Positions 2,794-44,403 of a stretch of DNA of 48,101 nucleotides are shown piece by piece (position 1 is the first letter of the stretch; each line of letters starts with the position of its first letter). Source of the DNA: a virus (lineage: Duplodnaviria; Heunggongvirae; Uroviricota; Caudoviricetes); IMG/VR virus record IMGVR_UViG_2939521961_000008, one strand, 5' to 3'. Position numbers and translations under genes: made by a program. The notes under the pieces were generated by a model. That model searched no databases, was not told the origin of the DNA, and saw only the letters and a list, made by a program, of their open reading frames with translations.

Positions 2794-5386
2794 TTGCATA
2801 TTCCTTAGCCCAGCGGGGCAGTGATAACGTCTTAATAGCTGGCCATTCATCGGTATTGAGGCAGTCAGCCAGGGTTCGCAGATTGCGGTGATATTCCAGC
2901 TGACCTGCCAGTTTTGCTTCTTCGCCCATCATGAAAATTTCAACCGGATAACGTCCGCATTCAATAGTTGTGCTGGCAACCAGAAAAACGAAAGTTGGCT
3001 GCACTCCAAACTGTGCTTCATAACCGTCACTGTAGAATGCATCCTGAACGTGATAGCGGTAGTCGTAATAAGCGGTTTTGAATCGTTGAATATCCGCCGT
3101 AGTTTTCACGTCCATGATCCAGTGAAATTCAGGGATAATTTTGTCCGGACGGCACCGACACAAAATTGCTGTTTCAGGATCTTCCCAGTAAATTGATGAT
3201 TCAGCGTGTCCGGCGCTTTCAACAAGCCATTGCCCCAGCGGCAAAGCCATAACGCTCTGATACATGAGTTCAATTTTCCGGCCTTCTTCGGCAGTGATAA
3301 CCGTTTTTCCTGTGCTTGCGCATTCCCTCAGAAACGCTTTCTCTTCTTCTTTTCCGGAGTTTGTCCGGCGGTTAAATTCAGGTGCTACGATAAAGCGGTT
3401 ACTGAATTCTTCCGGCTCAAGTACCCGGCAGTGGAAAGCGGTTCCTAAATCGAGCGTTTTTGTCTTTGTGGTGTCCACGGGGGCATTTTTACGCCACAAA
3501 TACAGTGCCGGAGTATCAGCAATGTCATCGAGCTGAGACTTACTGACACCGGGACCCGCGTGGTAATTCTCATTCGAAATTCCGTAATAAATACCTGGCT
3601 CTATGTCTTCTACGATTACGGGATCTGCGACTTCGCCAGTTTCATCACTGCAATCGCGATGCGGATCGCTGCCAGCATTCTCATTGTGCGGATGTTCAGC
3701 GCCTTCCATTTCCTCCGGATCATTTTCCTTAGCTTCAACCTGACTCTCTTCATCGAATGTTTCCTGGTATGTTGCGTCGCCCATCACCGCACCACAGTCA
3801 GGGCAGTTATCCCCGCCAGTCTGGCCGCAGGCATTGCAGGCTATTTCCGGTTCCTGTTGCACTATTGGCTCAGGTTGATTCATATCCGGGCTGGTTTTTT
3901 CCGTTTCTGGCTGGTTCTGGTACACACAATCGCGAGTCTGGATCCCCTTTACCCATTTCGGATCGTTCGGGTCGCTAATTCTGTCAACAAATTCACCACG
4001 TGATGCAGCAAGCAATTTATCGGCATCGACAGGATTTTTTGATGGAATGTTTTTCCGGGCTTCATGGAGTTCTGCCCGCAGTTCCTGATATTTCGCATCA
4101 ACAGAATTTACCTGTGACTGAGCATCCAGCGGCTGCGTGTCCTGATGATGTTCAGTTGCGTCCGGTTCCATTGTTTCAGCCTCTCCCTGTTCAACTGCCG
4201 TTGTTCCAGATGGTTGCGGTTTTTCTTCATAATCCTGTTTTCCTTCTTCTGTTACTCGCTGCGGCATCGGGGCAGAGGAGCGACCGCAGGCAATATCCAC
4301 GATTTCCGGATCAGGGTTGGCATGATCGGTTTCAGTCAGTACTTTGTTCAGATATTCAGTGACGTGCGCGGGGATGACCTCGATCCCAATTGGTGCTTCT
4401 TTTACGGACGCAACCACGATGGCGCGGGAATAATCCAGCCCGCCAGGCATGGTGATGAATTTGTCGCGGAAAACAGAAAAGGGCGGTTTATTTTCAGCGA
4501 TAATTTCCTCAATGCGTTTAGCGTGTGCCGGATGAAGGTTATAGATGTCCAGATCCATTGAACGGGCCAGTACGCCAGTGGCTACGTCCCGCGCCAGTGA
4601 CGTCAGATCGTGTACGAAACCTTCGCCGCGATCGGTGAGGTTTCCGCCGCCAGCATTAGCACCGGAAGCCGTGCGAGTGATGTGTGAAACACGATTACCC
4701 TTCATCCACTCTTTTGTCAGCAGTCCTCGATCGGTGTAGTCAGCGTTCAGGTATGCTTCGAAAAAAGCAGTTATCAGTCCCAGGTTTGAATTACCAGGAT
4801 TAGGGAAAACTTTGTCAGTGTCACGAACCAGTTTGTGGAGTTCGCGAATTTCCAGCGGGTCGAGCAGGCTGGTTTTGTGGGAAACAGCCAGGGCAGTAAC
4901 AGCCGGTAGTTCTTCAGCCCGAGCAATGTGTAATGCCTGGAGTCCGTCGCGTGAAACGTGCGTTACCGGTTTTTCGCTGCCGTGTTGAGCAAGCCAACGA
5001 ATGGGCAGTTCCTGGCCAGAAATTGGGAGTAGCATATTCTCCTCAATCTCAGTCATGTCTTCGCCGTTGACGTTGGTATTGCCTTGATAGTGAGCGTTGT
5101 CTGGTGCTGCTCCCGGTTTTAGTTCCCATGTCATGGAGTCTTTGCTGAGTTGATAGCGTTCACTCCAGGTAAAATCGATCTCACCTTCAGCGGGCAGGTC
5201 ATTAACGACAGGAAAATTCGTGGCAACAGCTTTAAAATAGCTGCTCAGTTTTTTACCTGACTTAACGATCAGGTAGTCCAGAGTGGCACAGGTCGATTCA
5301 AAATCGTTGCTTGCCCACAGGACGACGTCAGGTTCACCGGATGATTTTTTCGCTTTCCGTAACAGGAAGAGTGGTTTTGTGCTCAT
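2786..5386 (-). CDS. recE: RecE exonuclease VIII, full-length 866 aa
   Basis: 866-aa [32 protein letters not shown]... with C-terminal nuclease region; 8-bp overlap with recT as in Rac. Confidence 0.95.
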
Positions 5387-5837: not shown

Positions 5838-6008
5838 TTAAAGTTCATGTGCCATCTGGTCTTTTTCGGCACAAGCTTCACTGCAATATTTTCTCGGTTC
5901 GTCTTTTGATAAAATCCCGTGCATGAAGTGAAGCATTCTTTCAATAGCTTTGCTTTCTTCAACGTCTTTTTTGCAAAGGTGGTAAGCACATTTTATTTTC
6001 TTAGTCAT
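5838..6008 (-). CDS. ydaE: YdaE-like small Cys-rich protein, 56 aa
   Basis: Hand translation [56 protein letters not shown]; ATGA start overlap with kilR stop; under 60 aa so absent from the ORF track. Confidence 0.7.
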   Translation of the reverse strand: MTKKIKCAYHLCKKDVEESKAIERMLHFMHGILSKDEPRKYCSEACAEKDQMAHEL

Positions 6009-6229
6009 CACCATGACTCCGCCTTTACAGGTAAACCATCACGACCGAGGAAGACTTTAATCATGCGGTCAGTAATGCATGTTTTTGTGGTCAGGTTACG
6101 AATATATAGTTTTCGCTTTTTAATATTGTTTGCCGAGGCAATATATGTCCGGCCTTCATGAAGAACATAATCGCCAGGAGTCACACACTGACGTGGTATT
6201 TCATCAGTTCCGAAGTGATGTGCAATCAT
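6008..6229 (-). CDS. kilR: KilR cell-division inhibitor, 73 aa
   Basis: [32 protein letters not shown]... from internal Met of ORF 6008..6241; first gene of the leftward operon. Confidence 0.85.
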
Positions 6230-6649
6230 AATTATCTCCATTTTTACAAATGAACTTTGTTGATGCGGTGCCTGGTGCCTCCAGGTGACTGCAACCAGTT
6301 AACAATTACAGTCGGCTTTCCCACCCAAACCAATAAGGACTAACATGACTTTTAACTGTGCCGCGTGCGCTTAGCCGCATTCACCGCATCACAAAATTCA
6401 CTTTAAAAAGGGCGGACATCAGTCGAACTTCAAGAAAAAACTGATGCCGCCAAGACTACACACAGCAGTGTTGTTATTCACAACCGGAGGCGCACTCCCA
6501 CCATTTAAATTTAACAGACAAGACCGACTCTTTATGGATACCGGAAATGCGCCTTCGTGTTGTGCCCGGTTTTATTTCACCACCTCCGGGCTTTGGTGGC
6601 CTCGGCTATACCCCTACAGCAAGAATATTGAATTAATCCAATAAATGGT

Positions 6650-6889
6650 TTAGCTGGTATTTTTGGCAAGCCAGCGACGGGCACCATTTTCGGTTTTAAA
6701 CGTTTTGCTTTTGGTATACGTCATTGCGGTGAACGTGCCGTCCTGGTTTGGAAACACGCCGTACACCAGAGATGCGTTGTTGCCAAGATCGATAGTATCC
6801 ATGCTGACCTCATTTCCCCTTAACGCCGGGGTAGCGGAACAAAAACCTGCTGCATAGTTATTAAAGTTGAACCCTGCCGTCATGTTCAT
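6650..6889 (-). CDS. hypothetical small protein (possible YdaF/YdaG-like); start uncertain
   Basis: 79-aa ORF in the leftward operon between the repressor and kilR; no recognisable domain. Confidence 0.35.
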   Translation of the reverse strand: MNMTAGFNFNNYAAGFCSATPALRGNEVSMDTIDLGNNASLVYGVFPNQDGTFTAMTYTKSKTFKTENGARRWLAKNTS

Positions 6890-7100
6890 ACGCCTCGGGC
6901 TGGCTACTTAACCCCTGACCACTGCCGGGTAACTCGAAGTATTGCCCTGCGTTCTGTGGGGCGGGGTGGGTTGGTAGGTATATAATGTACTTTGTGTTCA
7001 TTGATGTAAAGTACTTTAAGTACATTTTGTGTGTAAAAAAATGAGATGGGATAAAGTGAAGCACAAACCCGGAGGGGGACGCTACCGGATTTATGCTGGT

Positions 7101-7520
7101 TTAAGAGGCTTTTTGTTTTTTCTTTCGTGCTAGCTCTTCGTAAATTGCATTGTACTTCTGTTTTTTCTCCTCAAGAGTTTTTAAAAGTTCATCTGTCTCA
7201 CTGTCAGGGAGCTCGTCCAGAAGGTCAATGATGATTTTTTGTCTTGGATTTAACTCCTGATAGAAACGTACCTGTCCACTTTCTTCTGTATCCTCTCCCA
7301 AAAGATAGGTTGGTGTTGTTCCAATGAGTGTTGCTAATTCCCTTAATTTCTCTCGGCGAGGAATTGTTTCGCCATTAAACCATTTGCTAACCGCTTTTGG
7401 TGTTAATTTCATTCGACGGGCAATTTCTGCCTGCCTTCCATGTTGTTCATAACCAGCGTTTTCACAGGCTAGCGCAAGCCTACTGGCGAACTCTTTACGC
7501 GCTTTATCTTCATGAACCAT
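7101..7520 (-). CDS. prophage repressor, XRE-family HTH without a peptidase domain (RacR/DicA-like architecture)
   Basis: 139 aa; HTH segment GRQAEIARRMKLTPKAVSKWFNGE; divergently arranged with a Cro-like gene across a 79-bp operator region. Confidence 0.7.
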   Translation of the reverse strand: MVHEDKARKEFASRLALACENAGYEQHGRQAEIARRMKLTPKAVSKWFNGETIPRREKLRELATLIGTTPTYLLGEDTEESGQVRFYQELNPRQKIIIDLLDELPDSETDELLKTLEEKKQKYNAIYEELARKKKQKAS

Positions 7521-8285: not shown

Positions 8286-8776
8286 ATGCTGTTTGTGCTT
8301 ATTCTAAGCCACCGGGCAGCATCATACGGGGCAATTATGGCCGCATTACCATACATGCAACTGTACATAGCTGATTACCTGGCTGACACCATGCATTTGT
8401 CAGCAGAGGAGCATGGTGCGTATTTGTTGCTGATGTTCAATTACTGGCAAACAGGAAAGCCAATACCTAAAAACAGGCTGGCAAAAATTGCCCGTCTGAC
8501 TAACGAGCGATGGGCTGATGTTGAACCATCCTTGCAGGAGTTTTTTTGCGATAACGGCGAGGAATGGGTGCATCTTCGGATTGAGGAAGATCTGGCATCA
8601 GTCAGGGAAAAATTAACCAAAAAATCAGCCGCAGGAAAAGCATCTGTTCAGGCCAGAAGAAGCAGAAAGGAAGCAGATGTTCAAACAAAACAAGAGAGAA
8701 ATTTAACAGGTGTTCAAACAGATGTTGAAGTGGTGTTTGAACATGATGTCAACACAAAGGCAACTAATAAAGATAC
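8286..8776 (+). pseudogene. ydaU: ydaU-like (DUF1376) replication gene, N-terminal part, truncated by IS insertion
   Basis: ORF reads MAALPYMQLYIADYLADTMHLSAEEHGAYLLLMFNYWQTGKPIP... and runs directly into the IS inverted repeat at 8777. Confidence 0.6.
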
Positions 8777-8818
8777 TGAACCGCCCCGGGTTTCCTGGAG
8801 AGTATTTTATCTGTGAAC

Positions 8819-9709
8819 TCAGGCTGCCAGATCATTATTTCCGATGGAAGCATAATAAGCTTTTTCTGCTTCTGCCGGAGGAATATGGCCCAGCCTTTCC
8901 AGCAATCGTCGATTGTTATACCAGTCCACCCACGTTAGTGTGGCCAGTTCCACTTCTGTCCGGTTTTTCCAGCTATTACGGTGTATTACCTCCGCTTTGT
9001 AAAGACCATTGATGCTCTCAGCCATCGCGTTGTCATACGAGTCGCCAGTACTCCCTGTTGATGCCAGTAATCCGGCTTCCTTAAGCCGCTGCGTGTAGGC
9101 CAGCGATACATACTGAGAACCTTTATCACTGTGATGGATTGTGCCGGACGGCCGACGGGCCCACAACGCCTGCTCCAGTGCATCCAGCACGAATGTTGTT
9201 TCCATGGATGATGAGACCTGCCATCCCACGATGTATCCGGCGAACACATCAATGATGAACGCCACATAAACGAAGCCCTGCCATGTGCTTACCCAGGTAA
9301 AATCAGCCACCCACAACTGGTCTGGACGTTCTGCCACGAACTGACGGTTTACGCGGTCGCATGCGGCAACGGCTTTCCGGCTGACGGTAGTGCGGACCTT
9401 TTTACCCCGGAGAACACCGGCAAGTCCCATAACTGCCATGAGACGTGCCACAGTGCATCTGGCCACTCTGATACCTTCCCGTAACAACTGACGCCAGACT
9501 TTACGCACACCGTATACCTGGTGATTTTCATCGTATACGCGCTGTATCTCTTTCTTCAGCCAGTCATCGTGCTGCGCACGGGCACTGCGTTTATCCGGAT
9601 GATGTCGCTGTTGCTGACAATGGTAATACGTTGACGGGGCAATATGCAGTTCGCTGCATACCGGTCCGACCCCGTACTGCTCACGCAGCTTATCCAGCAG
9701 TGGCATCAT
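8819..9709 (-). CDS. IS3-family transposase OrfB (DDE integrase domain), 296 aa
   Basis: DDE-type catalytic core (…WVADFTW…, …HSDKGSQY…, …DNAMAES…); overlaps orfA end. Confidence 0.9.
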
Positions 9710-10032
9710 TTTTTCCAGAGGCGGTCGAACTCCGCCTTCGCAAAATAAGCGGAAGCCTGGCGAAGGATATCGTTACTGCGGCGCAGTTCACGATTTTCAC
9801 GTTCCAGCTCTTTCAGACGCTGACGTTCAGCACTGGTGAGCCCACCATCACCGCCCCCGGTATCCCGCTCATGCTGGCGAACCCAGACACGCAGAGTCTC
9901 CGGCGTACAGCCAATCTTTGGGGCAATGGAACAAATTGCCGCCCACTGTGAGTCATATTCATCCTGACTTTCCAGAACCATACGAATCGCCCGCTGACGG
10001 ACTTCGGGGGAAAAACGAGTATTTTTAGTCAT
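9706..10032 (-). CDS. IS3-family transposase OrfA (HTH), 108 aa
   Basis: [22 protein letters not shown]... with leucine-zipper-like C-terminus; ends in GGAAAAAATGA where orfB begins (frameshift window). Confidence 0.9.
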
Positions 10033-10095
10033 CCTGTTTACCTCTTTCTCAGGGAGTTTAGTCTCCAGGATTTCCGGGGCGGTTCATACAGATAA

Positions 10096-15173: not shown

Positions 15174-15639
15174 ACTGGCCTGAAGCATTTGCAATTACAG
15201 GCGTTGCTATGGCTATCGCTTTTTTAGTATATGTTATTTGTCGGTGAGGGTAAAAACGTTCGCCGGGATTAACACCAAAGGAGGGAATATGTCGGATGAT
15301 ATATCACTGGCAATGGAAGGTGCGCTGGCTGTTGTTGCTGTTGTGGGCGTTTACTGCCTGGTTGTGTTTTTGATGGATCGACTAGGGAACTGAATTCATT
15401 ACGATATGGGAATTCCCATATCGGGTAAAAACGGTTTGCGGGAAAAGGAGAGTTAAGTAGAATTGCTGCGGGTGCTTGAGGCTATCTGTCTCAGGCATGA
15501 ACACCAAAAGGCAGATAGAGAAAAGCCCCAGTTAACATTACGCGTCCTGCAAGACGCTTAACATTAATCTGAGGCCCAATCTATGTCTCACAAATGTAGG
15601 TTAGCCTCTTACGTGCCGAAAGGCAAGGAGAAGCAGGCT

Positions 15640-15795
15640 ATGAAGCAGCAAAAGGCGATGTTAATCGCCCTGATCGTCATCTGTTTAACCGTCATAGTGA
15701 CGGCACTGGTAACGAGGAAAGACCTCTGCGAGGTACGAATCCGAACCGGCCAGACGGAGGTCGCTGTCTTCACAGCTTACGAACCTGAGGAGTAA
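15640..15795 (+). CDS. hokD: Hok/Gef-family type I toxin (HokD/RelF-like), 51 aa; overlapping mok-like frame begins at 15583
   Basis: MKQQKAMLIALIVICLTVIVTALVTRKDLCEVRIRTGQTEVAVFTAYEPEE: single TM helix plus conserved Hok periplasmic tail; longer overlapping ORF in the same frame. Confidence 0.8.
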   Translation: MKQQKAMLIALIVICLTVIVTALVTRKDLCEVRIRTGQTEVAVFTAYEPEE

Positions 15796-17304: not shown

Positions 17305-17679
17305 ATGCGTATAGAGTTTGTTTTGCTTTACCCGCCGACGGTGAACACCTACTGGCGACGTCGTGGCAGCACATATTTTGTATCAAAAGCCGGTGAGCGT
17401 TATCGCCGGGCTGTGGCGCTTATTGTTCGCCAGCAGCGGCTGAAATTAAGCCTGTCCGGAAGGCTGGCGATAAAGATTATTGCCGAGCCACCGGATAAGC
17501 GCCGCCGTGACCTGGACAATATTCTGAAAGCGCCGCTGGATGCGCTGACGCATGCGGGAGTGTTAATGGACGATGAGCAGTTTGATGAAATCAATATCGT
17601 TCGTGGTCAGCCAGTATCTGGTGGACGTCTGGGGGTGAAGATTTACCCCATAATGCTTGAAGGGCTGGTCAAAAAATGA
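17305..17679 (+). CDS. rusA: RusA-type Holliday junction resolvase
   Basis: 124 aa; conserved RRRDLDN acidic catalytic motif and overall RusA length. Confidence 0.85.
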   Translation: MRIEFVLLYPPTVNTYWRRRGSTYFVSKAGERYRRAVALIVRQQRLKLSLSGRLAIKIIAEPPDKRRRDLDNILKAPLDALTHAGVLMDDEQFDEINIVRGQPVSGGRLGVKIYPIMLEGLVKK

Positions 17680-18497
17680 AACTGGAAGATTTACCGAAAT
17701 ACTACTCCCCAAAATCCCCCGGCCTGACTGATGCATCGGCCTCAACGTCGAAAGATACGCTGAGTATCACTGATGTGATGGCCGCGCAGGGCATGACACA
17801 GAATTGGGCTGAGATGGGGTTTTCTGCGTTCCTTGGGAAAATGGGCATTAGTATGAATGACAGAGAGCGGGCAACAGAATTGCTGACAGAATATGCACTC
17901 AGTCGGTGTGATCGCGTGGCGGCGTTAAGAAAACTCCCGGCAGAAATAAAACCGGCAGTGATGCGTATTATGGCTTCGTATGCGTTTGAAGATTATGCCC
18001 GTAGCGCGGCGAGCAAAAAACAGTGCCCCTGTTGTCACGGAAAAAAATTTATTGAAAGCGAGGTTTTTACAAACAAGATCCAGTATCCGGATGGTAAGCC
18101 GCCAGTGTGGGCAAAGTGCACAAAAGGCGTGTATCCGTCTTACTGGGAGGAATGGAAAAAAGTCAGGGAGGTGGTAAAAGTTGCCTGTCCGGAGTGTGGA
18201 GGGAAGGGGGAGGTTTCCACCGCCTGTAAAGATTGTCGTGGGCGCGGTGTTGCCATTCATCGTGAAGAGTCGGTAAAACGTGGTATGCCTGTTATCAGAG
18301 ACTGCCAGCGTTGTGGTGGTCGTGGCTATGAAAGATTACCTTCAACGGAGGCATTTAATGCCATATGTAATGTAACCGATGCCATATCTCTTGATACATG
18401 GAAAAAAACAGTTAAACGTTTTTACGATACGCTGGTGGTGCAGTTTGATATTGAAGAAGCATGGGCAGAACAACAACTGAAAAAGGTGACCAGATAG
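17676..18497 (+). CDS. Q: late-gene antiterminator Q-like protein (Cys-rich zinc-binding type)
   Basis: 273 aa, multiple CxxC pairs (CPCCHGKK, CPECGGKG, CKDCRGRG, CQRCGGRG); immediately upstream of a promoter-plus-terminator arrangement. Confidence 0.65.
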   Translation: MKLEDLPKYYSPKSPGLTDASASTSKDTLSITDVMAAQGMTQNWAEMGFSAFLGKMGISMNDRERATELLTEYALSRCDRVAALRKLPAEIKPAVMRIMASYAFEDYARSAASKKQCPCCHGKKFIESEVFTNKIQYPDGKPPVWAKCTKGVYPSYWEEWKKVREVVKVACPECGGKGEVSTACKDCRGRGVAIHREESVKRGMPVIRDCQRCGGRGYERLPSTEAFNAICNVTDAISLDTWKKTVKRFYDTLVVQFDIEEAWAEQQLKKVTR

Positions 18498-18512
18498 CTT
18501 TGTTGATTTTTC

Positions 18513-18541
18513 CCGAATCTGTGGTAAATTTGCCCTAACGA
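18513..18541 (+). promoter_or_regulatory. candidate Q-dependent late promoter (PR'-like): TTGATT-N16-TAAATT
   Basis: Hexamers 16 bp apart directly downstream of the Q stop codon. Confidence 0.4.
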
Positions 18542-18578
18542 TGGGCGTTTTATGCCTGACGTTAGAAGATTTTTTACA

Positions 18579-18601
18579 CCCGTCGCCAGGCGGGTTTTTT
18601 T
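18579..18601 (+). terminator. rho-independent terminator (tR'-like) downstream of the late promoter
   Basis: CCCGTC-GCCA-GGCGGG hairpin followed by seven T. Confidence 0.6.
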
Positions 18602-18704
18602 ATGACTGAAATCACGCCAGTACAGTAAACGCGCTGGTGGTTGTGAATACCGGTCTTTCAGCTTGCTGGCTTTTTCGACAAGAGTTATTGGTGTGTCACG
18701 TTAA

Positions 18705-19097
18705 CCGGAAAAAGGAAAGTTTGAGAAACGCGATCTGGCACAGGCGGTTATTAATGCTGCCTACCTGGTGGCCTGTGCAGATGGTGAATGTGAGGCTTCC
18801 TAGAAAGCGAAGATCGAACAGGTACTGCGTAATCAGCCTGCGCTGTCCGCGTTTACGTCAGAAATTAATGCGATTAGCGCAACCATTATCGGTCAGCTGG
18901 ATACGAACTTTAAAATTGGTCGTCGTGCGGCGTTACGTGAGATCGAGGATGTGAAACACGATACGCGTGAAGCGGAAGATGTGCTGGATGTGGCGGTGGC
19001 CATTGCGGAGGCAGACGGCGAAATTGAGCCGGAAGAGCGCAAGGTGCTGGAAGAGATTGCCGGTGTTCTGGGTCTTCGTCTGGAGAATCACCAGTGA
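18705..19097 (+). pseudogene. TerB-like domain remnant: no start codon, in-frame amber at 18801-18803
   Basis: Frame translates ...AYLVACADGECEAS*KAKIEQVLRNQPALSAF...DVLDVAVAIAEADGEIEPEERKVLEEIAGVLGLRLENHQ, resembling the two ADG-x-E repeats of TerB/DjlA-N domains. Confidence 0.5.
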
Positions 19098-19261
19098 CGG
19101 TAAAACTGCGCCTGGCTGTGGCTGCACTCCTGCTGTTTCTGGTGGTGATGGTGGATTTCACCAGCAGAATCATGTCGGTGCTGGCGGATGGGGTGCTGGT
19201 CTGCGGCATTGTGGTATTGCTGTGGCCGGTGATAAAAAGAAACAGCCTGCATAATGCTTGA
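19094..19261 (+). CDS. candidate small membrane protein, 55 aa, two predicted TM helices
   Basis: GTG overlapping the TerB-like TGA (GTGA); MTVKLRLAVAALLLFLVVMVDFTSRIMSVLADGVLVCGIVVLLWPVIKRNSLHNA; not in the ORF track (under 60 aa). Confidence 0.35.
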   Translation: MTVKLRLAVAALLLFLVVMVDFTSRIMSVLADGVLVCGIVVLLWPVIKRNSLHNA

Positions 19262-19428
19262 TTTTTTTGTTTACTGTTTATTAAAAATACTACTGCATGG
19301 TGAATCCCCCTGTGCGGAGGGGCAATCAGCAACCAGGTATATGTGATAATCGCGGATTCAGGTGCTGATACTGAATTCACCGGGAGGCACCCGGCACCAT
19401 GCAAGAAAAAGAATGTGCATGCAAACAT

Positions 19429-19452
19429 GCCCCTCTCCGGAGGGGCTTTTTT
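19429..19452 (+). terminator. rho-independent terminator-like hairpin
   Basis: GCCCCTC-TCCG-GAGGGGC followed by TTTTTT. Confidence 0.5.
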
Positions 19453-19667
19453 ATGGGTAAAAAATGCCCGAATGGGTTCGGGCAATAGCATGAGATACTG
19501 ATATTGTTGTGTTGTTATCGTGTGGATTTTAACCAGGGTTTATCAGGCTGCGCAACTGCGTGGCCTTTTTTCATTTCTTGGGCTGTAGTCCCCGTGTGTC
19601 ATTCAGGCTTCCGGACTACAGCCCACTCCATATCTGATTTAATACACTATCCCGGCCGGGAGGAATA

Positions 19668-21518
19668 ATGACATTTAAACATTATGATGTTGTCAGGGCG
19701 GCGTCGCCGTCAGACCTTGCGGAAAAGCTGACACACAAACTGAAAGAGGGCTGGCAGCCGTTTGGGAGTCCGGTGGCCATAACCCCTTATACCCTGATGC
19801 AGGCGATTACAGCAGAAGGTGATGTGGTGGTCAGTGGTGCAACTGAGCCGGAGTGGTACTACGTCATCGTACTGGCCGGGCAGTCCAATGCCATGGCTTA
19901 CGGTGAAGGGCTTCCGCTGCCGGATTCATACGATGCTCCGGATCCGCGCATTAAACAGCTGGCGCGCCGCAGTACAGTGACGCCGGGTGGGGCTGCCTGC
20001 AGATATAACGATATTATTCCGGCCGACCACTGCCTGCATGATGTGCAGGATATGAGTACGCTGAATCATCCGAAGGCAGACCTGAGCAAAGGGCAGTACG
20101 GCTGTGTCGGCCAGGGGTTACATATTGCCAAAAAACTGCTCCCGTATATCCCGAATAACGCGGGGATCCTGCTGGTACCATGCTGTCGTGGTGGTTCGGC
20201 ATTCACCCAGGGCGCGGAGGGGACATTCAGTGCGGACACGGGGGCCAGCCAGGATTCGGCACGCTGGGGTGTGGGTAAACCGTTATATCAGGACCTGATT
20301 GCGCGCACTAAAGCTGCATTACAGAAGAACCCGAAAAATGTGTTGCTGGCGGTGTGCTGGATGCAGGGAGAGTTTGACATGAGCGCCGCCACCCACGCAC
20401 AGCAACCTGCGCTGTTTACAGCCATGCTGACACAGTTTCGTGCTGACCTCTCCGTGTTTAACGCGCAGTGCCATGGTGGCAGTGCTGCAGATGTGCCGTG
20501 GATTTGTGGTGACACGACGTATTACTGGAAAAATACATACGCTACCCAGTACGACACCGTGTACGGCGGGTATAAAAACAGGGAGAGTGAGGGCGTTTAT
20601 TTTGTGCCCTTCATGACAGACGGTAACGGTGTCAATACCGCCACTAACGCGCCGGCAGAAGATCCGGATATTCCGGCATCAGGATATTACGGTGCGGCAT
20701 CGAGAACGAATGGAAACCAGGTATCATCAAACCGCCCGACACATTTCAGTTCATGGGCGCGCAGGAGCATTATTCCGGATCGTCTGGCAACCGCTATTCT
20801 GAACGCAGCCGGGCGCACCTCCGCCTTCATCAGTGGTAAGGCACCGGAAATCAAACCCTCGCCCGGCGGCAACACGCCATCGGGTCCGTCTGCAGATACG
20901 TCCGTTCGCACAATCTCCCTGCTGCCGGCAGCCGGAGAGGCTGCTGCGCAGGGCTGGAGCATTAAGGATGGCGGAATTCAGTTGTCAGATGGTGTATTTA
21001 AGATCACCAAGCAGAGCAATAAAACCTGGTCCCTGACGCATCCGGTGGATGACGCAATTACCCTGCTGACACAGGGCGGCAGACTGACCTGTAAGTTCCG
21101 CCTGTCAGGCGCACTGACCAACAATCAGTTCGGGCTGGGGATTTATCTGTATACGGATGCTCCCGTTCCTGATGGTGTGGCGATGACGGGTACCGGTAAT
21201 CCGTTCCTGATGTCGTACTTCACTCAGACCACTGACGGCAGAGTGAATCTGATGCATCACAGGAAAGCCGGAAACACGAAGCTGGGGGAGTTCGGCGATT
21301 ACGGTAACGACTGGCAGACGCTGGAGCTGGTGTTCACCGCCGGCAGTGCCACGGTTACTCCGAAACTGAATGGAGTGGCTGGCCCGGCATTCCAGGTTAT
21401 AAAAGACAGTCTGACACTGGGACTGAATGCGCTGACGCTGACGGATGTTACAAAAAATGCAGCGTATGGCGTTGAGATAGAAAGTCTGATGCTGGAGATA
21501 AATGCACCGGCAGCATAA
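19668..21518 (+). CDS. nanS: prophage sialate O-acetylesterase (NanS-p / YjhS-like), 616 aa
   Basis: RBS GGGAGG; N-terminal small domain followed by an SGNH-hydrolase-type GQSNA motif (VLAGQSNAMAYGEG); size and position between Q and lysis genes as in Stx-type phages. Confidence 0.75.
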   Translation: MTFKHYDVVRAASPSDLAEKLTHKLKEGWQPFGSPVAITPYTLMQAITAEGDVVVSGATEPEWYYVIVLAGQSNAMAYGEGLPLPDSYDAPDPRIKQLARRSTVTPGGAACRYNDIIPADHCLHDVQDMSTLNHPKADLSKGQYGCVGQGLHIAKKLLPYIPNNAGILLVPCCRGGSAFTQGAEGTFSADTGASQDSARWGVGKPLYQDLIARTKAALQKNPKNVLLAVCWMQGEFDMSAATHAQQPALFTAMLTQFRADLSVFNAQCHGGSAADVPWICGDTTYYWKNTYATQYDTVYGGYKNRESEGVYFVPFMTDGNGVNTATNAPAEDPDIPASGYYGAASRTNGNQVSSNRPTHFSSWARRSIIPDRLATAILNAAGRTSAFISGKAPEIKPSPGGNTPSGPSADTSVRTISLLPAAGEAAAQGWSIKDGGIQLSDGVFKITKQSNKTWSLTHPVDDAITLLTQGGRLTCKFRLSGALTNNQFGLGIYLYTDAPVPDGVAMTGTGNPFLMSYFTQTTDGRVNLMHHRKAGNTKLGEFGDYGNDWQTLELVFTAGSATVTPKLNGVAGPAFQVIKDSLTLGLNALTLTDVTKNAAYGVEIESLMLEINAPAA

Positions 21519-21810
21519 TAAAAAAAGCCAGCGACTGACCTGAAAAAGAAGACGCTGGCTAAAAGGCCTTATATGTTTGTAGAGACTTATTTTTCACAGA
21601 CAGCAATGATGCCTGTCAATATATTATCAATATGCGGATTGTTTCAGTTACAGATGCCTTATTAAGGAAAAAAACAGCCAGCACTGACTTTCGGTGGAGA
21701 GGTGCTGGCTCAAAAGGATAGATGTACTTCACATGTTGCTTCTATATGGCAGTACATTTTCTGACAGACAGTGACGGATGTTGTCAAGATATTGTGTCAT
21801 TTATAACCTG
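21519..21810. repeat. two imperfect direct repeats of about 145 bp, each starting with an A-run plus a GCCAGC...GCTGGC hairpin
   Basis: Copy 1 around 21519-21667, copy 2 around 21668-21810; shared blocks AAAAAAA-GCCAGC-ACTGAC, GCTGGCT-AAAAGG, TTTTC-ACAGACAG, TGTCAA-ATATT. Confidence 0.6.
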
Positions 21811-21965
21811 AATCAGGGGAGGCCGGAATGTTATCTGGCATTTTTAGCAGAGCCTGAATGCCATAATCACGGCTCCCGGCGTTGGCCGTCAGTGGGTGAC
21901 ACTGGCGGCTTTTTTGTTTTTCTTTACTTTCATTTTCTGTCGGCGGTGACGGAGACATACATCAG

Positions 21966-22172
21966 ATGGAAAAAATCACAACAGGTGTGTCATACACCAC
22001 GTCAGCGGTGGGGACGGGATACTGGTTACTGCAGCTGCTGGACAAAGTCTCTCCGTCCCAGTGGGTGGCAATAGGTGTGCTGGGAAGTCTGCTGTTTGGC
22101 CTGCTGACGTATCTGACAAATCTTTATTTCAAGATTAAAGAAGATAAGCGTAAGGCTGCGAGAGGTGAATAA
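21966..22172 (+). CDS. S: class II holin, phage-21 S-type pinholin, 68 aa
   Basis: [68 protein letters not shown] closely resembles S21. Confidence 0.85.
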
Positions 22173-22669
22173 TGTCGCCGTCATTACGCAAGGCTGTTGC
22201 AGCTGCTATTGGTGGTGGGGCTGTTGCCATAGCGTCTGTGCTCATCACTGGTCCAGGTGGTAACGATGGTCTGGAAGGTGTCAGCTACATACCATACAAA
22301 GATATCGTTGGCGTATGGACTGTATGTCACGGACACACCGGAAAAGACATCATGCCCGGTAAAACGTATACCGAAGCAGAATGCAAAGCCCTCCTGAATA
22401 AAGACCTTGCCACGGTCGCCAGACAAATTAACCCGTACATCAACGTCGATATACCGGAAACAACGCGCGGCGCTCTTTACTCGTTCGTTTACAACGTGGG
22501 CGCTGGCAATTTCAGAACATCGACGCTTCTTCGCAAAATAAACCAGGGCGATATCAAAGGCGCATGTGATCAGCTACGGCGCTGGACATACGCTGGCGGT
22601 AAGCAATGGAAAGGGCTGATGACTCGCCGCGAGATTGAGCGTGAAGTCTGTTTGTGGGGGCAACAATGA
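22172..22669 (+). CDS. R: SAR endolysin (lysozyme with N-terminal signal-anchor-release segment)
   Basis: ATGA overlap with holin; hydrophobic Gly/Ala-rich N-terminus [20 protein letters not shown] followed by a lysozyme-like domain. Confidence 0.8.
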
Positions 22670-23103
22670 GCAGGGTAACCGTTATTATCTCCGCTCTGGT
22701 TATCTGCATTATCGCCTGCCAGTCATGGGCTGTTAATCATTACCGTGATAACGCCATCGCCTACAAAGAGCAGCGCGATAAAGCCACATCCATCATCGCT
22801 GATATGCAGAAGCGGCAACGTGATGTAGCAGAACTTGACGCCAGATACACAAAGGAGCTTGCTGATGCTAATGCGACTATCGAAAGTCTCCGTGCTGATG
22901 TTTCTGCTGGGCGTAAGCGCCTGCAAGTCTCCGCCACCTGTGCAAAGTCAACGACCGGAGCCAGCAGCATGGGCGATGGAGAAAGCCCAGGACTTACATC
23001 AGATGCTGAACTCAATTATTACCGTCTCCGAGGTGGAATCGACAAGATAACCGCGCAGGTTAACTACCTGCAGGAATACATCAGGACGCAGTGCTTAAAA
23101 TAA
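22666..23103 (+). CDS. Rz: Rz-like inner-membrane spanin
   Basis: N-terminal TM helix then coiled-coil rich periplasmic region; follows endolysin. Confidence 0.75.
22871..23050 (+). CDS. Rz1: Rz1-like outer-membrane lipoprotein spanin embedded in the +1 frame of Rz
   Basis: [18 protein letters not shown] lipobox followed by Pro-rich segment [16 protein letters not shown]; start codon choice uncertain (22865 or 22871). Confidence 0.6.
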
Positions 23104-23169: not shown

Positions 23170-23321
23170 GTACCGGTATTTCACCGCGCACCGCAGCGCA
23201 CAATAAACACCGAACCTGACCCTTTGGAATGGGCCTTTGAGGATACCAGTTAGTGCTGGCGAGCCTCGGTGGGCTGGTTTCCTGTGCGGCAAAGGTTCAT
23301 TTCAAAGAAGCAGGCAACGCC

Positions 23322-23870
23322 ATGAATGAATTAATTGCGAATCATGACTTCGACTTTCGCCAGTTAGTTACCGCAGCAGAAGGTCAACCGGTAACTGACA
23401 CCTTCCAGATTGCCAGGGCATTTGGTAAACGCCATCAGCATGTGATTAGGGCTATTAAATGTTTGAGATGTTCTGAGGAATTCTCGACAACCCATTTTTG
23501 GGCCGTCGAGAAAATCAATGACTTAGGTATTTTTGACAAGAAACAGATTTACTACCGCATGGACTTTAGTGGCTTCGTTATGCTGGTTATGGGATTTAAC
23601 GGGGCAAAAGCCGATGCTGTTAAAGAAGCCTATATCAATGCGTTTAACTGGATGTCAGCAGAACTCCGTAAGTACAGCGAAAGTTATGAAGCAGAACGTA
23701 ACGCCGTAATGCTGGAGTACATGAAAGAGAAGGATGTCGCCAGCATGTCAGGCCGTCTGCTCAATCGCTGGGGGAGAACGAAAAAACCTCAATTGCTTGC
23801 AAAGCTGGAACGTCTGGAGAGACAGGGACAGTTTTTATTACCGGGATTCGATAAAGGTATTCAAGCCTGA
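23322..23870 (+). CDS. rha: Rha-family phage regulatory protein (ORF track begins at GTG 23253)
   Basis: N-terminal segment VTDTFQIARAFGKRHQHVIRAIKCL typical of the Rha/ORF6N domain. Confidence 0.65.
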   Translation: MNELIANHDFDFRQLVTAAEGQPVTDTFQIARAFGKRHQHVIRAIKCLRCSEEFSTTHFWAVEKINDLGIFDKKQIYYRMDFSGFVMLVMGFNGAKADAVKEAYINAFNWMSAELRKYSESYEAERNAVMLEYMKEKDVASMSGRLLNRWGRTKKPQLLAKLERLERQGQFLLPGFDKGIQA

Positions 23871-24057
23871 CACATTATGCGCTGTATCGTCGCCGTATTC
23901 CCGCATTAACCATGACCGTAGCCCGACGGGGAATTCCTTCTGCGTGAGTGTGCGGGAATAATCAAAAACGATGCACACCGGGTTTTACTGTGCTGACAGA
24001 CGCAGGGTTACCCTCATAGTCGCTTTTCCGGTGCGATGGTGGAAGAAACCGGGATGT

Positions 24058-24252
24058 TCATCCATCATCACTTTGGATTGATGTATATGCTCTCTTTTCT
24101 GACGTTAGTCTCCGACGGCAGGCTTCAATGACCCAGGCTGAGAAATTCCCAGACCCTTTTTGCTCAAGAGCGATGTTAATTTGTTCAATCATTTGGTTAG
24201 GAAAGCGGATGTTGCGGGTTGTTGTTCTGCGGGTTCTGTTCTTCGTTGACAT
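24058..24252 (-). CDS. DUF3950/YlcI-like small DNA-binding protein, 64 aa
   Basis: Opposite strand to all neighbours; MSTKNRTRRTTTRNIRFPNQMIEQINIALEQKGSGNFSAWVIEACRRRL resembles small ribbon-helix-helix-type prophage proteins found between lysis and terminase genes. Confidence 0.55.
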   Translation of the reverse strand: MSTKNRTRRTTTRNIRFPNQMIEQINIALEQKGSGNFSAWVIEACRRRLTSEKRAYTSIQSDDG

Positions 24253-24451
24253 GAGGTTGCCCTGTATTCAGTGTCGCTGATTTGTATTGTCTGAAGTTGT
24301 TTTTACGTTAAGTTGATGCAGATCAATTAATACGATACCTGCGTCATAATTGATTATTTGACGTGGTTTGATGGCGTAGATGCACGTTGTGACATGTAGA
24401 TGATAATTATTATCATTTTGCGGGTCCTTTCCGGCGATCCGACAGGTTACG

Positions 24452-24463
24452 GGGCGGCGACCT
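24452..24463 (+). other. cosN cohesive-end site (lambda-type 12-nt overhang GGGCGGCGACCT); cosB lies downstream toward Nu1
   Basis: CGACAGGTTACG|GGGCGGCGACCT|CGCGGGTTTTCGCTATTTATGAAAATTTTCCGG reproduces the lambda right-end/left-end junction as I recall it. Confidence 0.85.
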
Positions 24464-24640
24464 CGCGGGTTTTCGCTATTTATGAAAATTTTCCGGTTTA
24501 AGGCGTTTCCGTTCTTCTTCGCCGTAACCTAATGTTTTTATTTAAAACACCCCCTGAAAAGAAAGGAAACGACAGGTGCTGAAAACGAGCTTTTTGGCCT
24601 CTGTCGTTTCCTTTCTCTGTTTTTGTCCGTGGAATGAACA

Positions 24641-25160
24641 ATGGAAGTCAACAAAAAGCAGCTGGCTGACATTTTCGGTGCGAGTATCCGTACCATTCAG
24701 AACTGGCAGGAACAGGGAATGCCCGTTCTGCGAGGCGGTGGCAAGGGTAATGAGGTGCTTTATGACTCTGCCGCCGTCATAAAATGGTATGCCGAAAGGG
24801 ATGCTGAAATTGAGAACGAAAAGCTGCGCCGGGAAGTTGAAGAACTGCGGCAGGCCAGCGAGACAGATCTCCAGCCAGGGACTATTGAGTACGAACGCCA
24901 TCGACTTACGCGTGCGCAGGCCGACGCACAGGAGCTGAAAAATGCCAGAGACTCCGCTGAAGTGGTGGAAACCGCATTCTGTACTTTCGTGCTGTCGCGG
25001 ATCGCAGGTGAAATTGCCAGTATTCTCGACGGGATCCCCCTGTCGGTGCAGCGGCGTTTTCCGGAACTGGAAAACCGACATGTTGATTTCCTGAAACGGG
25101 ATATCATCAAAGCCATGAACAAAGCAGCCGCGCTGGATGAACTGATACCGGGGTTGCTGA

Positions 25161-25186
<26 letters not shown>
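24641..25186 (+). CDS. Nu1: terminase small subunit Nu1, 181 aa
   Basis: MEVNKKQLADIFGASIRTIQNWQEQGMPVL... essentially lambda Nu1. Confidence 0.95.
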
Positions 25187-28867
<3,681 letters not shown>

Positions 28868-30584: not shown

Positions 30585-31610
30585 ATGTCGATGTACACAA
30601 CCGCCCAGCTGCTGGCGGCAAATGAGCAGAAATTTAAGTTTGATCCGCTGTTTCTGCGTCTCTTTTTCCGTGAGAGCTATCCCTTCACCACGGAGAAAGT
30701 CTATCTCTCACAAATTCCGGGACTGGTAAACATGGCGCTGTACGTTTCGCCGATTGTTTCCGGTGAGGTTATCCGTTCCCGTGGCGGCTCCACCTCTGAA
30801 TTTACGCCGGGATATGTCAAGCCGAAGCATGAGGTGAATCCGCAGATGACCCTGCGTCGCCTGCCGGATGAAGATCCGCAGAATCTGGCGGACCCGGCTT
30901 ACCGCCGCCGTCGCATCATCATGCAGAACATGCGTGACGAAGAGCTGGCCATTGCCCAGGTCGAAGAGATGCAGGCAGTTTCTGCCGTGCTTAAGGGCAA
31001 ATACACCATGACCGGTGAAGCCTTTGATCCGGTTGAGGTGGATATGGGCCGCAGTGCGGCAAACAACATCACACAGTCCGGTGGCACGGAGTGGAGCAAG
31101 CGTGACAAGTCCACGTATGACCCGACCGACGATATCGAAGCCTACGCGCTGAACGCCAGCGGCGTGGTGAATATCATCGTGTTTGATCCGAAAGGATGGG
31201 CGCTGTTCCGTTCCTTCAAAGCCGTCAGGGATAAGCTGGATACCCGTCGCGGCTCTCATTCCGAGCTGGAGACAGCGGTAAAAGACCTGGGCAAAGCGGT
31301 GTCTTATAAGGGAATGTATGGCGATGTGGCCATCGTCGTGTATTCCGGACAGTACGTGGAAAACGGCGTCAAAAAGAACTTCCTGCCGGACAACACGATG
31401 GTGCTGGGGAACACTCAGGCACGCGGTCTGCGTACCTATGGCTGTATTCAGGATGCGGACGCACAGCGCGAAGGCATTAACGCCTCTGCCCGTTACCCGA
31501 AAAACTGGGTGACTACCGGCGATCCGGCGCGAGAGTTCACCATGATTCAGTCAGCACCGCTGATGCTGCTGGCTGACCCTGATGAGTTCGTGTCTGTACA
31601 ACTGGCGTAA
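30585..31610 (+). CDS. E: major capsid protein E, 341 aa
   Basis: MSMYTTAQLLAANEQKFKFDPLFLRLFFRESYPF... near-identical to lambda gpE. Confidence 0.95.
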   Translation: MSMYTTAQLLAANEQKFKFDPLFLRLFFRESYPFTTEKVYLSQIPGLVNMALYVSPIVSGEVIRSRGGSTSEFTPGYVKPKHEVNPQMTLRRLPDEDPQNLADPAYRRRRIIMQNMRDEELAIAQVEEMQAVSAVLKGKYTMTGEAFDPVEVDMGRSAANNITQSGGTEWSKRDKSTYDPTDDIEAYALNASGVVNIIVFDPKGWALFRSFKAVRDKLDTRRGSHSELETAVKDLGKAVSYKGMYGDVAIVVYSGQYVENGVKKNFLPDNTMVLGNTQARGLRTYGCIQDADAQREGINASARYPKNWVTTGDPAREFTMIQSAPLMLLADPDEFVSVQLA

Positions 31611-44392: not shown

Positions 44393-44403
44393 GTGGGGTG
44401 AAT

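Follow-up and report, generated by a model that had tools for sequence, protein, structure and literature searches.

The locus considered here raises the question of which enzyme a prophage encodes between its late-gene antiterminator and its lysis genes, when this enzyme is made and whom it serves. The stretch of DNA analysed is the virus record IMGVR_UViG_2939521961_000008 of 48,101 nucleotides (nt), hereafter called the window. The gene in question, nanS-p, codes for a protein of 616 amino acids (aa). An initial annotation had described the product as a sialate O-acetylesterase of the SGNH-hydrolase type, encoded by a metabolic moron of the late operon. As far as the sequence can tell, the gene is confirmed to be a real, intact copy of the known prophage esterase NanS-p. 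In all likelihood its product is a sialate 9-O-acetylesterase of the NanS-p type, carried as cargo by a lambda-headed prophage, which has it in its late region between the promoter pR' and the lysis genes and which sits beside ttcA in an enterohaemorrhagic Escherichia coli (EHEC) of the O26 type. The gene is thus a known and widely annotated allele in a known kind of location, and we do not claim it as new.

According to a program-made list of open reading frames (ORFs), the gene at 19668..21518 on the + strand is intact from the ATG to the stop codon. A ribosome-binding site, GGAGG (19659-19663), is found 4 nt ahead of the ATG. PHROG 143 covers the protein from end to end (E=0), and three Pfam families match it as well, all with scores above the gathering thresholds. 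The profile search that had been proposed, for DUF1737 and for SGNH/NanS, therefore recovers both domains, and in addition a third, lectin-like domain. Behind the N-terminal DUF1737 domain, the Pfam family SASA (PF03629) covers aa 66-262 (E=1e-12) and the NanS/YjhS structure from E. coli (PDB 3PT5) aligns with aa 59-379 (E=4.8e-121), which bears out the SGNH-hydrolase assignment. The C-terminal part is matched by the structure of a NanS-p C-terminal domain (PDB 6YP6, aa 421-613, E=1.1e-29) and by DUF6645 (PF20350, aa 467-577, E=4.4e-18). A search of the protein against the NCBIfam profiles gave no match. Neither a signal peptide nor a transmembrane segment is apparent, the maximum Kyte-Doolittle hydropathy over 19 aa being 0.97. 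Elsewhere in the window we found no second homologue of DUF1737, SASA or DUF6645. The GC content of nanS-p is 0.555, that of the window 0.518.

The active site was mapped in an alignment of the 616-aa protein with the proteins of phages 434, 933W and phi24B and with NanS of E. coli K-12, the NanS blocks being numbered as given for 3PT5 in PMC10792757. Block I, G71-Q72-S73-N74-A75, corresponds to G17-Q18-S19-N20-A21 of NanS. Blocks II (R174GGSAF179, NanS 120-125) and III (M232QGEFD237, NanS 178-183) are identical in the two proteins, and block V, R356-P-T-H359-F-S361, is aligned with R298-S-S-H301-F-S. The codons of Ser73 and His359 are located at 19884-19886 and 20742-20744. At position -3 of His359 the alignment has no Asp, just as in NanS. 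NanS is known to use a Ser19/His301 dyad without an Asp in block V, and its oxyanion hole is provided by the Gln beside the serine, which is positioned by the QGE motif (PMC9063846, PMC9487903). By analogy with the family, Ser73 would be the nucleophile and His359 the base, and Gln72 together with the glycine of RGGSAF would form the 'inverted' oxyanion hole of the SASA enzymes, held in place by MQGEFD. The initial annotation had regarded the lack of a catalytic triad as an argument against the esterase. Because the NanS family works with a Ser-His dyad and without the block V Asp, the Asp part of this test is inapplicable, and the protein passes the test in its Ser/His form, both Ser73 and His359 being present.

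The late-operon position proposed for nanS-p is clearly seen in the map (Table 1). The gene is situated between the late-gene antiterminator gene Q and the gene of a P21-type holin (21966-22172; Pfam Phage_holin_2_1, E=1.2e-32); a RusA gene is also found upstream. Three strong intrinsic terminators on the + strand precede nanS-p. The first, a tR'-like terminator, follows Q, and in phage 434 a terminator is annotated at the corresponding site behind that phage's own Q. The second (19429-19446, -16.3 kcal/mol) is at the end of the small RNA (sRNA) STnc100. The third is kept upstream of nanS-p in six alleles, namely those of the window, 933W, phi24B, 434 and two Stx1a phages (Stx, Shiga toxin). 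Altogether a scan of 17600-22300 gave 13 terminator-like sites compared with 3.8 expected. With a consensus scan no promoter-like site was found on the + strand in 18600-19667, which includes the stretch 19567-19667 between the last terminator and the gene. The putative late promoter pR' follows directly after Q, which is the placement of pR' in 933W and phi24B. As the gene lies between Q and the holin gene and behind three terminators, and as the scan detected no promoter belonging to it, we suggest that it is expressed late and in dependence on Q. Measured against what is expected of a moron, there is a terminator downstream, but a terminator also directly upstream, and no promoter-like site belonging to the gene was detected. 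Judged by its position, nanS-p looks like cargo of the late operon and not like an autonomous unit.

Table 1. Features of the window (48,101 nt) that are referred to in the text
Feature	Position	Strand	Evidence
nanS-p, 616-aa three-domain sialate O-acetylesterase gene	19668..21518	+	ORF list, Pfam, PHROG, PDB, identical database records
DUF1737 domain (aa 1-51), 'ITPYTLMQ' loop variant	19668..19820	+	Pfam PF08410, E=1.1e-15, aa 3-50; alignments
SASA/SGNH esterase domain (aa 59-379)	19842..20804	+	PDB 3PT5, E=4.8e-121; block-by-block mapping
C-terminal lectin-like jelly-roll domain, DUF6645 (aa 421-616)	20928..21515	+	PDB 6YP6; Pfam PF20350
Late-gene antiterminator Q, 273 aa	17676..18497	+	Pfam PF03589 (Antiterm), E=4.7e-50; O26 11368 annotation 'antitermination protein'
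Putative late promoter pR' (TTGATT, 16 nt spacer, TGgTAAATT extended -10)	18503..18530	+	Inferred, read from sequence
tR'-like intrinsic terminator downstream of Q	18578..18595	+	7-bp GC-rich stem followed by U7; -12 kcal/mol, z=-3.3
TerB-family (tciA-like) pseudogene	18735..19097	+	In-frame TAG in translation; RefSeq 'TerB family, internal stop'
DUF3927 (TciB-like) small membrane protein gene, intact	19094..19261	+	RefSeq; counterpart in phage 434 is TciB; translation
STnc100-family sRNA	19269..19458	+	Rfam RF02076, 147.8 bits (gathering score 47)
AgvB anti-GcvB sRNA, convergent with STnc100	19459..19520	-	Rfam RF02702, 96.5 bits (gathering score 56)
Intrinsic terminator about 100 nt upstream of nanS-p	19545..19566	+	-14.9 kcal/mol, z=-4.3
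13-bp stem-loop in the nanS-p 5' leader	19579..19625	+	-28 kcal/mol, z=-6.7
Intrinsic terminator between nanS-p and the holin gene	21884..21910	+	11-bp stem followed by U-run; -21.2 kcal/mol, z=-5.3
Lysis genes: (pin)holin of the P21 type, RrrD lysozyme, spanin/lysis protein	21966..23103	+	RefSeq; Pfam
IS3-family orfB	8819-9709	-	
IS3-family orfA	9706-10032	-	
ALIL frameshift pseudoknot	9635-9751	-	Rfam
Three NleG-family genes	46035-46676, 46749-47378, 47460-48101		After the tail-fibre genes; the last ends at the window edge

The arrangement is shared with other phages. The viable phage 434 has the same order of Q, terminator, membrane protein, TciB, terminator, SASA esterase, terminators, pinholin, SAR endolysin and spanins. 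The same module order is also found in 933W and phi24B, and the part from the cargo over nanS-p to the holin in the O26 Stx1a phage Stx1_14040. The slot between pR' and nanS-p contains tRNAs and stx in 933W, whereas here it contains the TerB-family pseudogene, the DUF3927 gene and the STnc100/AgvB pair, which lies about 150 nt upstream of nanS-p. ARAGORN detected no tRNA genes, so that the window lacks the tRNA cluster found ahead of stx in 933W. Tree et al. (2014, PMC4104026) reported the same arrangement of sRNAs, with the anti-sRNAs 3' of PR' in the moron insertion site, and found AgvB to be advantageous for growth in bovine rectal mucus. In this lambda-headed O26 prophage without stx, the cargo slot of the late region thus holds AgvB and NanS-p, both related to mucus, and the prophage carries nleG effector genes as well.

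Some further structures were seen in this region. Compared with the 248-aa gene which occupies this position in phage 434, the TerB-family pseudogene is shortened at the 5' end, and the AgvB site has a weaker Rfam match to AsxR (43 bits). The Stx1a phages conserve the stem-loop in the leader of nanS-p, 933W and phi24B differ in it by one mismatch, and 434 lacks it. Across the alleles compared, no covariation was found in the stem-loop. We ascribe no regulatory role to it because of the missing covariation and the absence in 434. Between nanS-p and the holin gene there is an imperfect tandem duplication of about 140 bp (21519-21660 and 21661-21815, 71% column identity), for which Rfam gave no match in 21519-21815. 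Each copy has a GCCAGC...GCTGGC hairpin after an A-run and is thus terminator-like on the - strand; in phage 434 two terminators of this strand are annotated at the corresponding sites. These hairpins could be the ends of small antisense transcripts.

We suggest that the enzyme acts in the following steps. Transcription of nanS-p would come only from pR', by RNA polymerase which Q has modified and rendered resistant to the terminators, and for this reason the protein would be made in induced cells. NanS-p has no signal peptide and would leave the cell when holin and endolysin bring about lysis. The esterase domain would then remove the 9-O-acetyl group from 5-N-acetyl-9-O-acetylneuraminic acid (Neu5,9Ac2) and from O-acetylated sialoglycans of mucin, with the C-terminal jelly-roll probably serving as carbohydrate-binding module, as in the family. 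Finally, the de-acetylated sialic acid could be used by surviving sibling lysogens. Activity and induction are in this way carried over from the family to the present allele by homology and by position. One relative of interest is Z3342 of strain EDL933, which we take to be the NanS-p of the Stx1 prophage CP-933V; the study of its supernatants does not use the name. In that study Z3342 is one of the top ten proteins in the supernatant without host cells, in the wild type and likewise in mutants of the type I, type II and type III secretion systems (PMC12962677). Such an abundance fits release by lysis and not secretion. According to a review (PMC8065619), z1466 of 933W and every NanS-p allele assayed from EDL933 and O104:H4 proved to be active Neu5,9Ac2 esterases, which enabled cells to grow on this substrate and removed O-acetyl groups from the glycans of bovine mucin; z1466 is also co-induced with stx. 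Mitomycin C raises the nanS-p transcripts in most stx2a strains (PMC10462455). NanS-p enzymes in general let EHEC use the O-acetylated sialic acids of the gut mucus, and the prophage copies can sum to large doses of nanS-p genes.

An esterase which is joined to a carbohydrate-binding module in one protein and which, by its position, is expressed with the late genes might also be directed at the bacterial surface. It could remove O-acetyl groups from O-antigen, capsule or polysialic acid and thereby aid adsorption or free the progeny from debris, in the style of a receptor-destroying enzyme. We consider this very improbable. The gene lies outside the tail and fibre module, and the catalytic domain is nearest to NanS of the nanCMS operon for sialic acid catabolism. 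To our knowledge no bacterial target of NanS-p has been described. The substrates that have been demonstrated for the homologues are Neu5,9Ac2 and the O-glycans of mucin (PMC8065619).

The window is a prophage from the intR-type integrase onwards, which in the reference genome is located beside ttcA. With positions 1870473-1910678 of E. coli O26:H11 strain 11368 the window shares 99.8-99.99% identity, except for an insertion of 1310 bp at about 8776-10086. The insertion is an insertion sequence (IS) of the IS3 family which is absent from O26:H11 11368 and which truncates a ydaU-like replication gene, leaving a remnant ORF at 8286-8816. Because of this truncation the prophage is probably replication-defective. 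The complete ydaU::IS junction is present in only 26 genomes. In 25 of them, among these RM10386 and RM8426 (both labelled O26), it is 100% identical; the 26th is an O157:H7 strain with 90% coverage. Apart from this strain, every one of the genomes that bears a serogroup label is labelled O26. At the other end of the window there are three tandem genes for type III secretion effectors of the NleG family (213, 209 and 213 aa; E=1e-43 to 1e-47), and the genomes closest to the window are O26, O103 and O145 EHEC. The three nleG genes and the O26-restricted IS junction make an attaching/effacing host of the O26 type well supported on sequence grounds, in line with what the nleG cargo (46035-48101) had initially been taken to mean.

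The major capsid protein (30585-31610) is 98.5% identical to gpE of lambda, and a gpD-like decoration protein is also encoded. Given this identity, the prophage, which lies at the Rac integration site and has Rac-like early genes, carries a genuine lambda-type head module. Tail genes extend over about 33-46 kb, with separate fibre genes at 44398-45988. The capsid protein is also 100% identical to that of ten Stx1a phages (LC645428-37). In the genome NZ_AP018808.1 (strain E2865) the ydaU::IS junction is at 1877070 (+) and the sole copy of Q with the adjacent nanS-p at 2506680-2510522 (-), about 630 kb apart and on opposite strands, which points to a large inversion whose ends lie in prophage or IS sequence.

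Several points weigh against our interpretation of the gene as a functional, lysis-released esterase. Block V reads RPTH here, as compared with RSSH or RASH in NanS and most NanS-p proteins; the RPTH form has been noted earlier in the allele of the Stx2 phage 86 (PMC10462455). To the protein of 933W and phi24B, which has been studied biochemically and structurally, the identity amounts to 56% for the N-terminal region, 71% for the esterase domain and 37% for the C-terminal domain, where three of the four binding-site positions are aromatic in both proteins. The putative pR' has 8 of 12 matches, which is under the threshold of the consensus scan, and was placed by inference only. In addition, the ydaU-like gene that the IS interrupts belongs to the rightward early operon, 7.6 kb upstream of Q, and the IS could reduce the expression of Q in cis. 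Finally, the homologue of phi24B is virion-bound and decorates the capsid. An enzyme that is set free by lysis may therefore be an incomplete mechanism, and so may the initial description as a metabolic moron released on lysis.

The IS also bears on whether the gene is expressed at all. Production on induction, as initially proposed, fits the position of the gene and is less certain for this particular copy, owing to the IS upstream of Q. Taken further, nanS-p could be a silent passenger, intact and effectively unexpressed in a defective prophage. Besides the IS in the ydaU-like gene, the TerB-family pseudogene and the other frameshifted or partial genes of the near-identical O26 prophage would agree with such a state, and without Q the three terminators stop read-through. 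Nevertheless we judge this to be improbable. The ORF is not only intact but 100% identical across many genomes, and Q, the lysis genes and the entire lambda-like structural module also look intact. The IS need not be polar on Q. Moreover, O26 genomes with the ydaU::IS junction have two places which match the Q and pR' region of the window, and a second copy of Q and pR' could activate the gene in trans. Such an activation of nanS-p is plausible.

The other point, binding to the virion, calls for a closer look at DUF1737. In fresh virions of phi24B the NanS-p protein gp84 is present at full length and is later autoprocessed, and a hexamer of its DUF1737 domain, anchored by Tyr42, has been resolved on the T=9 capsid, where it occupies the pore of face-centre hexons (2026 preprint, bioRxiv 10.64898/2026.04.10.717836). 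By extension, DUF1737 could dock a NanS-p hexamer to capsid hexons here as well. Released particles would in that case bear a mucin-directed esterase along with its carbohydrate-binding module and shed it later on, and the benefit would fall mainly to the phage, by retention in mucus or passage through it, and less to the nutrition of the lysogen. DUF1737 is indeed kept in the window, and its core (aa 1-33) is nearly invariant in comparison with 933W and phi24B. On the other hand, the capsid protein of the window with its gpE identity and its gpD-like partner is not of the 933W/phi24B type, which among E. coli and Shigella phages is found only in 933W/phi24B-type phages. Lambda heads have T=7 and are without a flat face-centre hexon. 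It is to this flat face-centre hexon that gp84 is restricted (bioRxiv 10.64898/2026.04.10.717836). The anchor loop is shorter by 3 aa, ITP-Y41-TLMQ here against STAG-Y42-GAEFIQ in phi24B, so that a Tyr is present (Y41) in a loop which is otherwise unrelated to the Tyr42 'tooth' loop. The processing motif SISSP is absent, and the linker, DVVVSGATEPE, is 11 aa shorter than that of phi24B. Furthermore, the same allele (99.5% nt identity) occurs with two head modules, one with gpE and one of the protease type without a lambda gpE-type capsid protein (Stx1_14040). On balance a virion-tethered enzyme seems unlikely to us for this prophage, though less so than a silent gene, and we keep to release by lysis as the preferred mechanism.

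One argument for a tether outside the phi24B group is that the loop varies with the type of virion. Among 11 aligned sequences the loop variant tracks the virion type and not the stx type. The loop 'STAGYGAEF' is found in four podoviruses of the genus Traversvirus (Sepvirinae), including the stx1-carrying SH2026Stx1. The loop 'ITPYTLMQ' is found in the window, 434, Stx1_120412 (gpE 100% identical), Stx1_14040, BP-4795 and PhiR12_4, all of which are gpE-headed or otherwise long-tailed; a Stx2a phage of 46 kb has a third loop type. In Stx1_120412 (LC645434), which has a gpE head, NanS-p is about 99% identical to that of phi24B from about aa 108 on and yet retains the ITPYT N-terminus. The counts of phage records are also compatible, with 207 having a D1-type N-terminus and 192 a capsid protein of the 933W type. 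The correlation of loop and virion comprises only about 11 sequences, however, and is confounded by common descent; linkage to the upstream DNA would be an alternative explanation. It is this small correlation, independent of stx, together with the one intragenic recombination junction, that leads us to consider 'ITPYTLMQ' as an anchor adapted to the lambda head and 'STAGYGAEF' as one adapted to the 933W head, with NanS-p docked to the capsid in lambda-headed phages, too. We regard this as a doubtful proposition at present. If true, DUF1737 would be a portable tether, matched to the type of capsid, which loads a mucin-directed esterase onto many temperate phages of E. coli, and the 'metabolic' nanS-p genes of EHEC would primarily encode virion components. 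The locus touches the question of whether DUF1737 tethers the enzyme to capsids outside the phi24B group.

In the alignment of Stx1_120412 (3001-4935) with phi24B (23314-25248) the first 107 aa or so are of the ITPYT type with the long linker, and the remaining 538 aa have 4 differences. This pattern points to a recent recombination junction inside nanS-p between a gpE-headed phage and the podovirus group. Two possible counter-examples to the correlation were considered and set aside. The first, the Stx2a_JNE prophages (LC7278xx), combine a D1-type N-terminus with a length of 48-56 kb and long-tail genes; the one examined, LC727843, has lost its head genes by an IS-associated deletion. The second, vB_EcoS_P22, seemed to be a siphovirus that has a D1-type N-terminus; its classification, however, is Traversvirus tv933W. 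In LC727843 (Stx2a_JNE122536) nanS-p (112-2049) is split into ORFs of 268 aa and 369 aa, and the lysis genes are directly followed by lambda-like tail genes. In the place of the head genes there is an IS3-family element (5900-7113), and we found no ORF of the size of a terminase, portal or capsid gene between the lysis genes and the tail genes of this record.

The allele itself is widespread. Its DNA is 100% identical to NC_013361 at 1888828-1890678 (WP_000143049.1) and to genes annotated as 'SASA family carbohydrate esterase' in the genomes of O26, O103 and other EHEC. A match to nanS-p was found in 2185 of 5426 complete E. coli genomes, 80% or more of the gene being covered in 1392 of them. 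A single genome has as many as 14 matching places, among which chromosomal nanS may be counted. The exact protein is encoded on 142 public contigs, where it is called YjhS, 9-O-acetyl-N-acetylneuraminic acid deacetylase or SASA family carbohydrate esterase, and its cluster at 90% identity has 13,211 members. Among the phages the closest relatives at the nt level are yjhS of the O26-type Stx1a phages (99.5%, e.g. LC567819), YYZ-2008 (99.4%) and H-19B (99.1%, in an alignment which is 5 bases shorter). The SASA esterase of phage 434 (UMO75335.1) has likewise 616 aa and 97% protein identity, but only 79% in the DUF1737 region. In O26 11368, the Stx1a phages and 434 the allele is likewise located upstream of a P21-type holin gene; neither the window nor 434 has a stx operon upstream.

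The proteins of 933W (L0105/Z1466) and phi24B (vb_24B_21, that is gp84) share with the present one the order of domains, the SASA blocks, the locus between Q/pR' and the lysis genes and the conserved upstream terminator. They are longer, 645 aa instead of 616 aa, and have RASH in block V where the window has RPTH. In the divergent C-terminal domain the binding-site residues Y510, Y515, Y540 and F611 of the window correspond to F488, Y493, F518 and L584 of phi24B. Both phages have a podovirus head (T=9 according to bioRxiv 10.64898/2026.04.10.717836), whereas the window encodes the lambda gpE head and a long tail. NanS of K-12 is 56% identical to the catalytic domain and shares blocks I, II, III and V, the Ser-His dyad and the Gln of the oxyanion hole. 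Unlike NanS-p, chromosomal NanS (YjhS) consists of a single domain and 326 aa. Its gene belongs to the nanCMS operon and not to a prophage late region, and the protein has neither DUF1737 nor the lectin-like domain.

The haemagglutinin-esterases of influenza C virus and betacoronaviruses are also sialate O-acetylesterases of the SGNH fold and are located on the virus particles (PMC9063846, PMC9487903). The likeness to NanS-p would be a functional analogy only, and only if NanS-p is in fact tethered to the virion. Those enzymes belong to another SGNH family (Hema_esterase) and have a canonical triad, a conventional oxyanion hole and a lectin domain inserted into the esterase; beyond the fold there is no homology to nanS-p.

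Apart from the late region, Rfam identified two antitoxin RNAs in the window, the sRNA RalA at 1557-1735 (+, 225 bits) beside ralR, and sok at 15470-15645 (+, 120 bits) beside hokD. The prophage thus has two type I toxin-antitoxin loci, RalA/ralR and sok/hokD.

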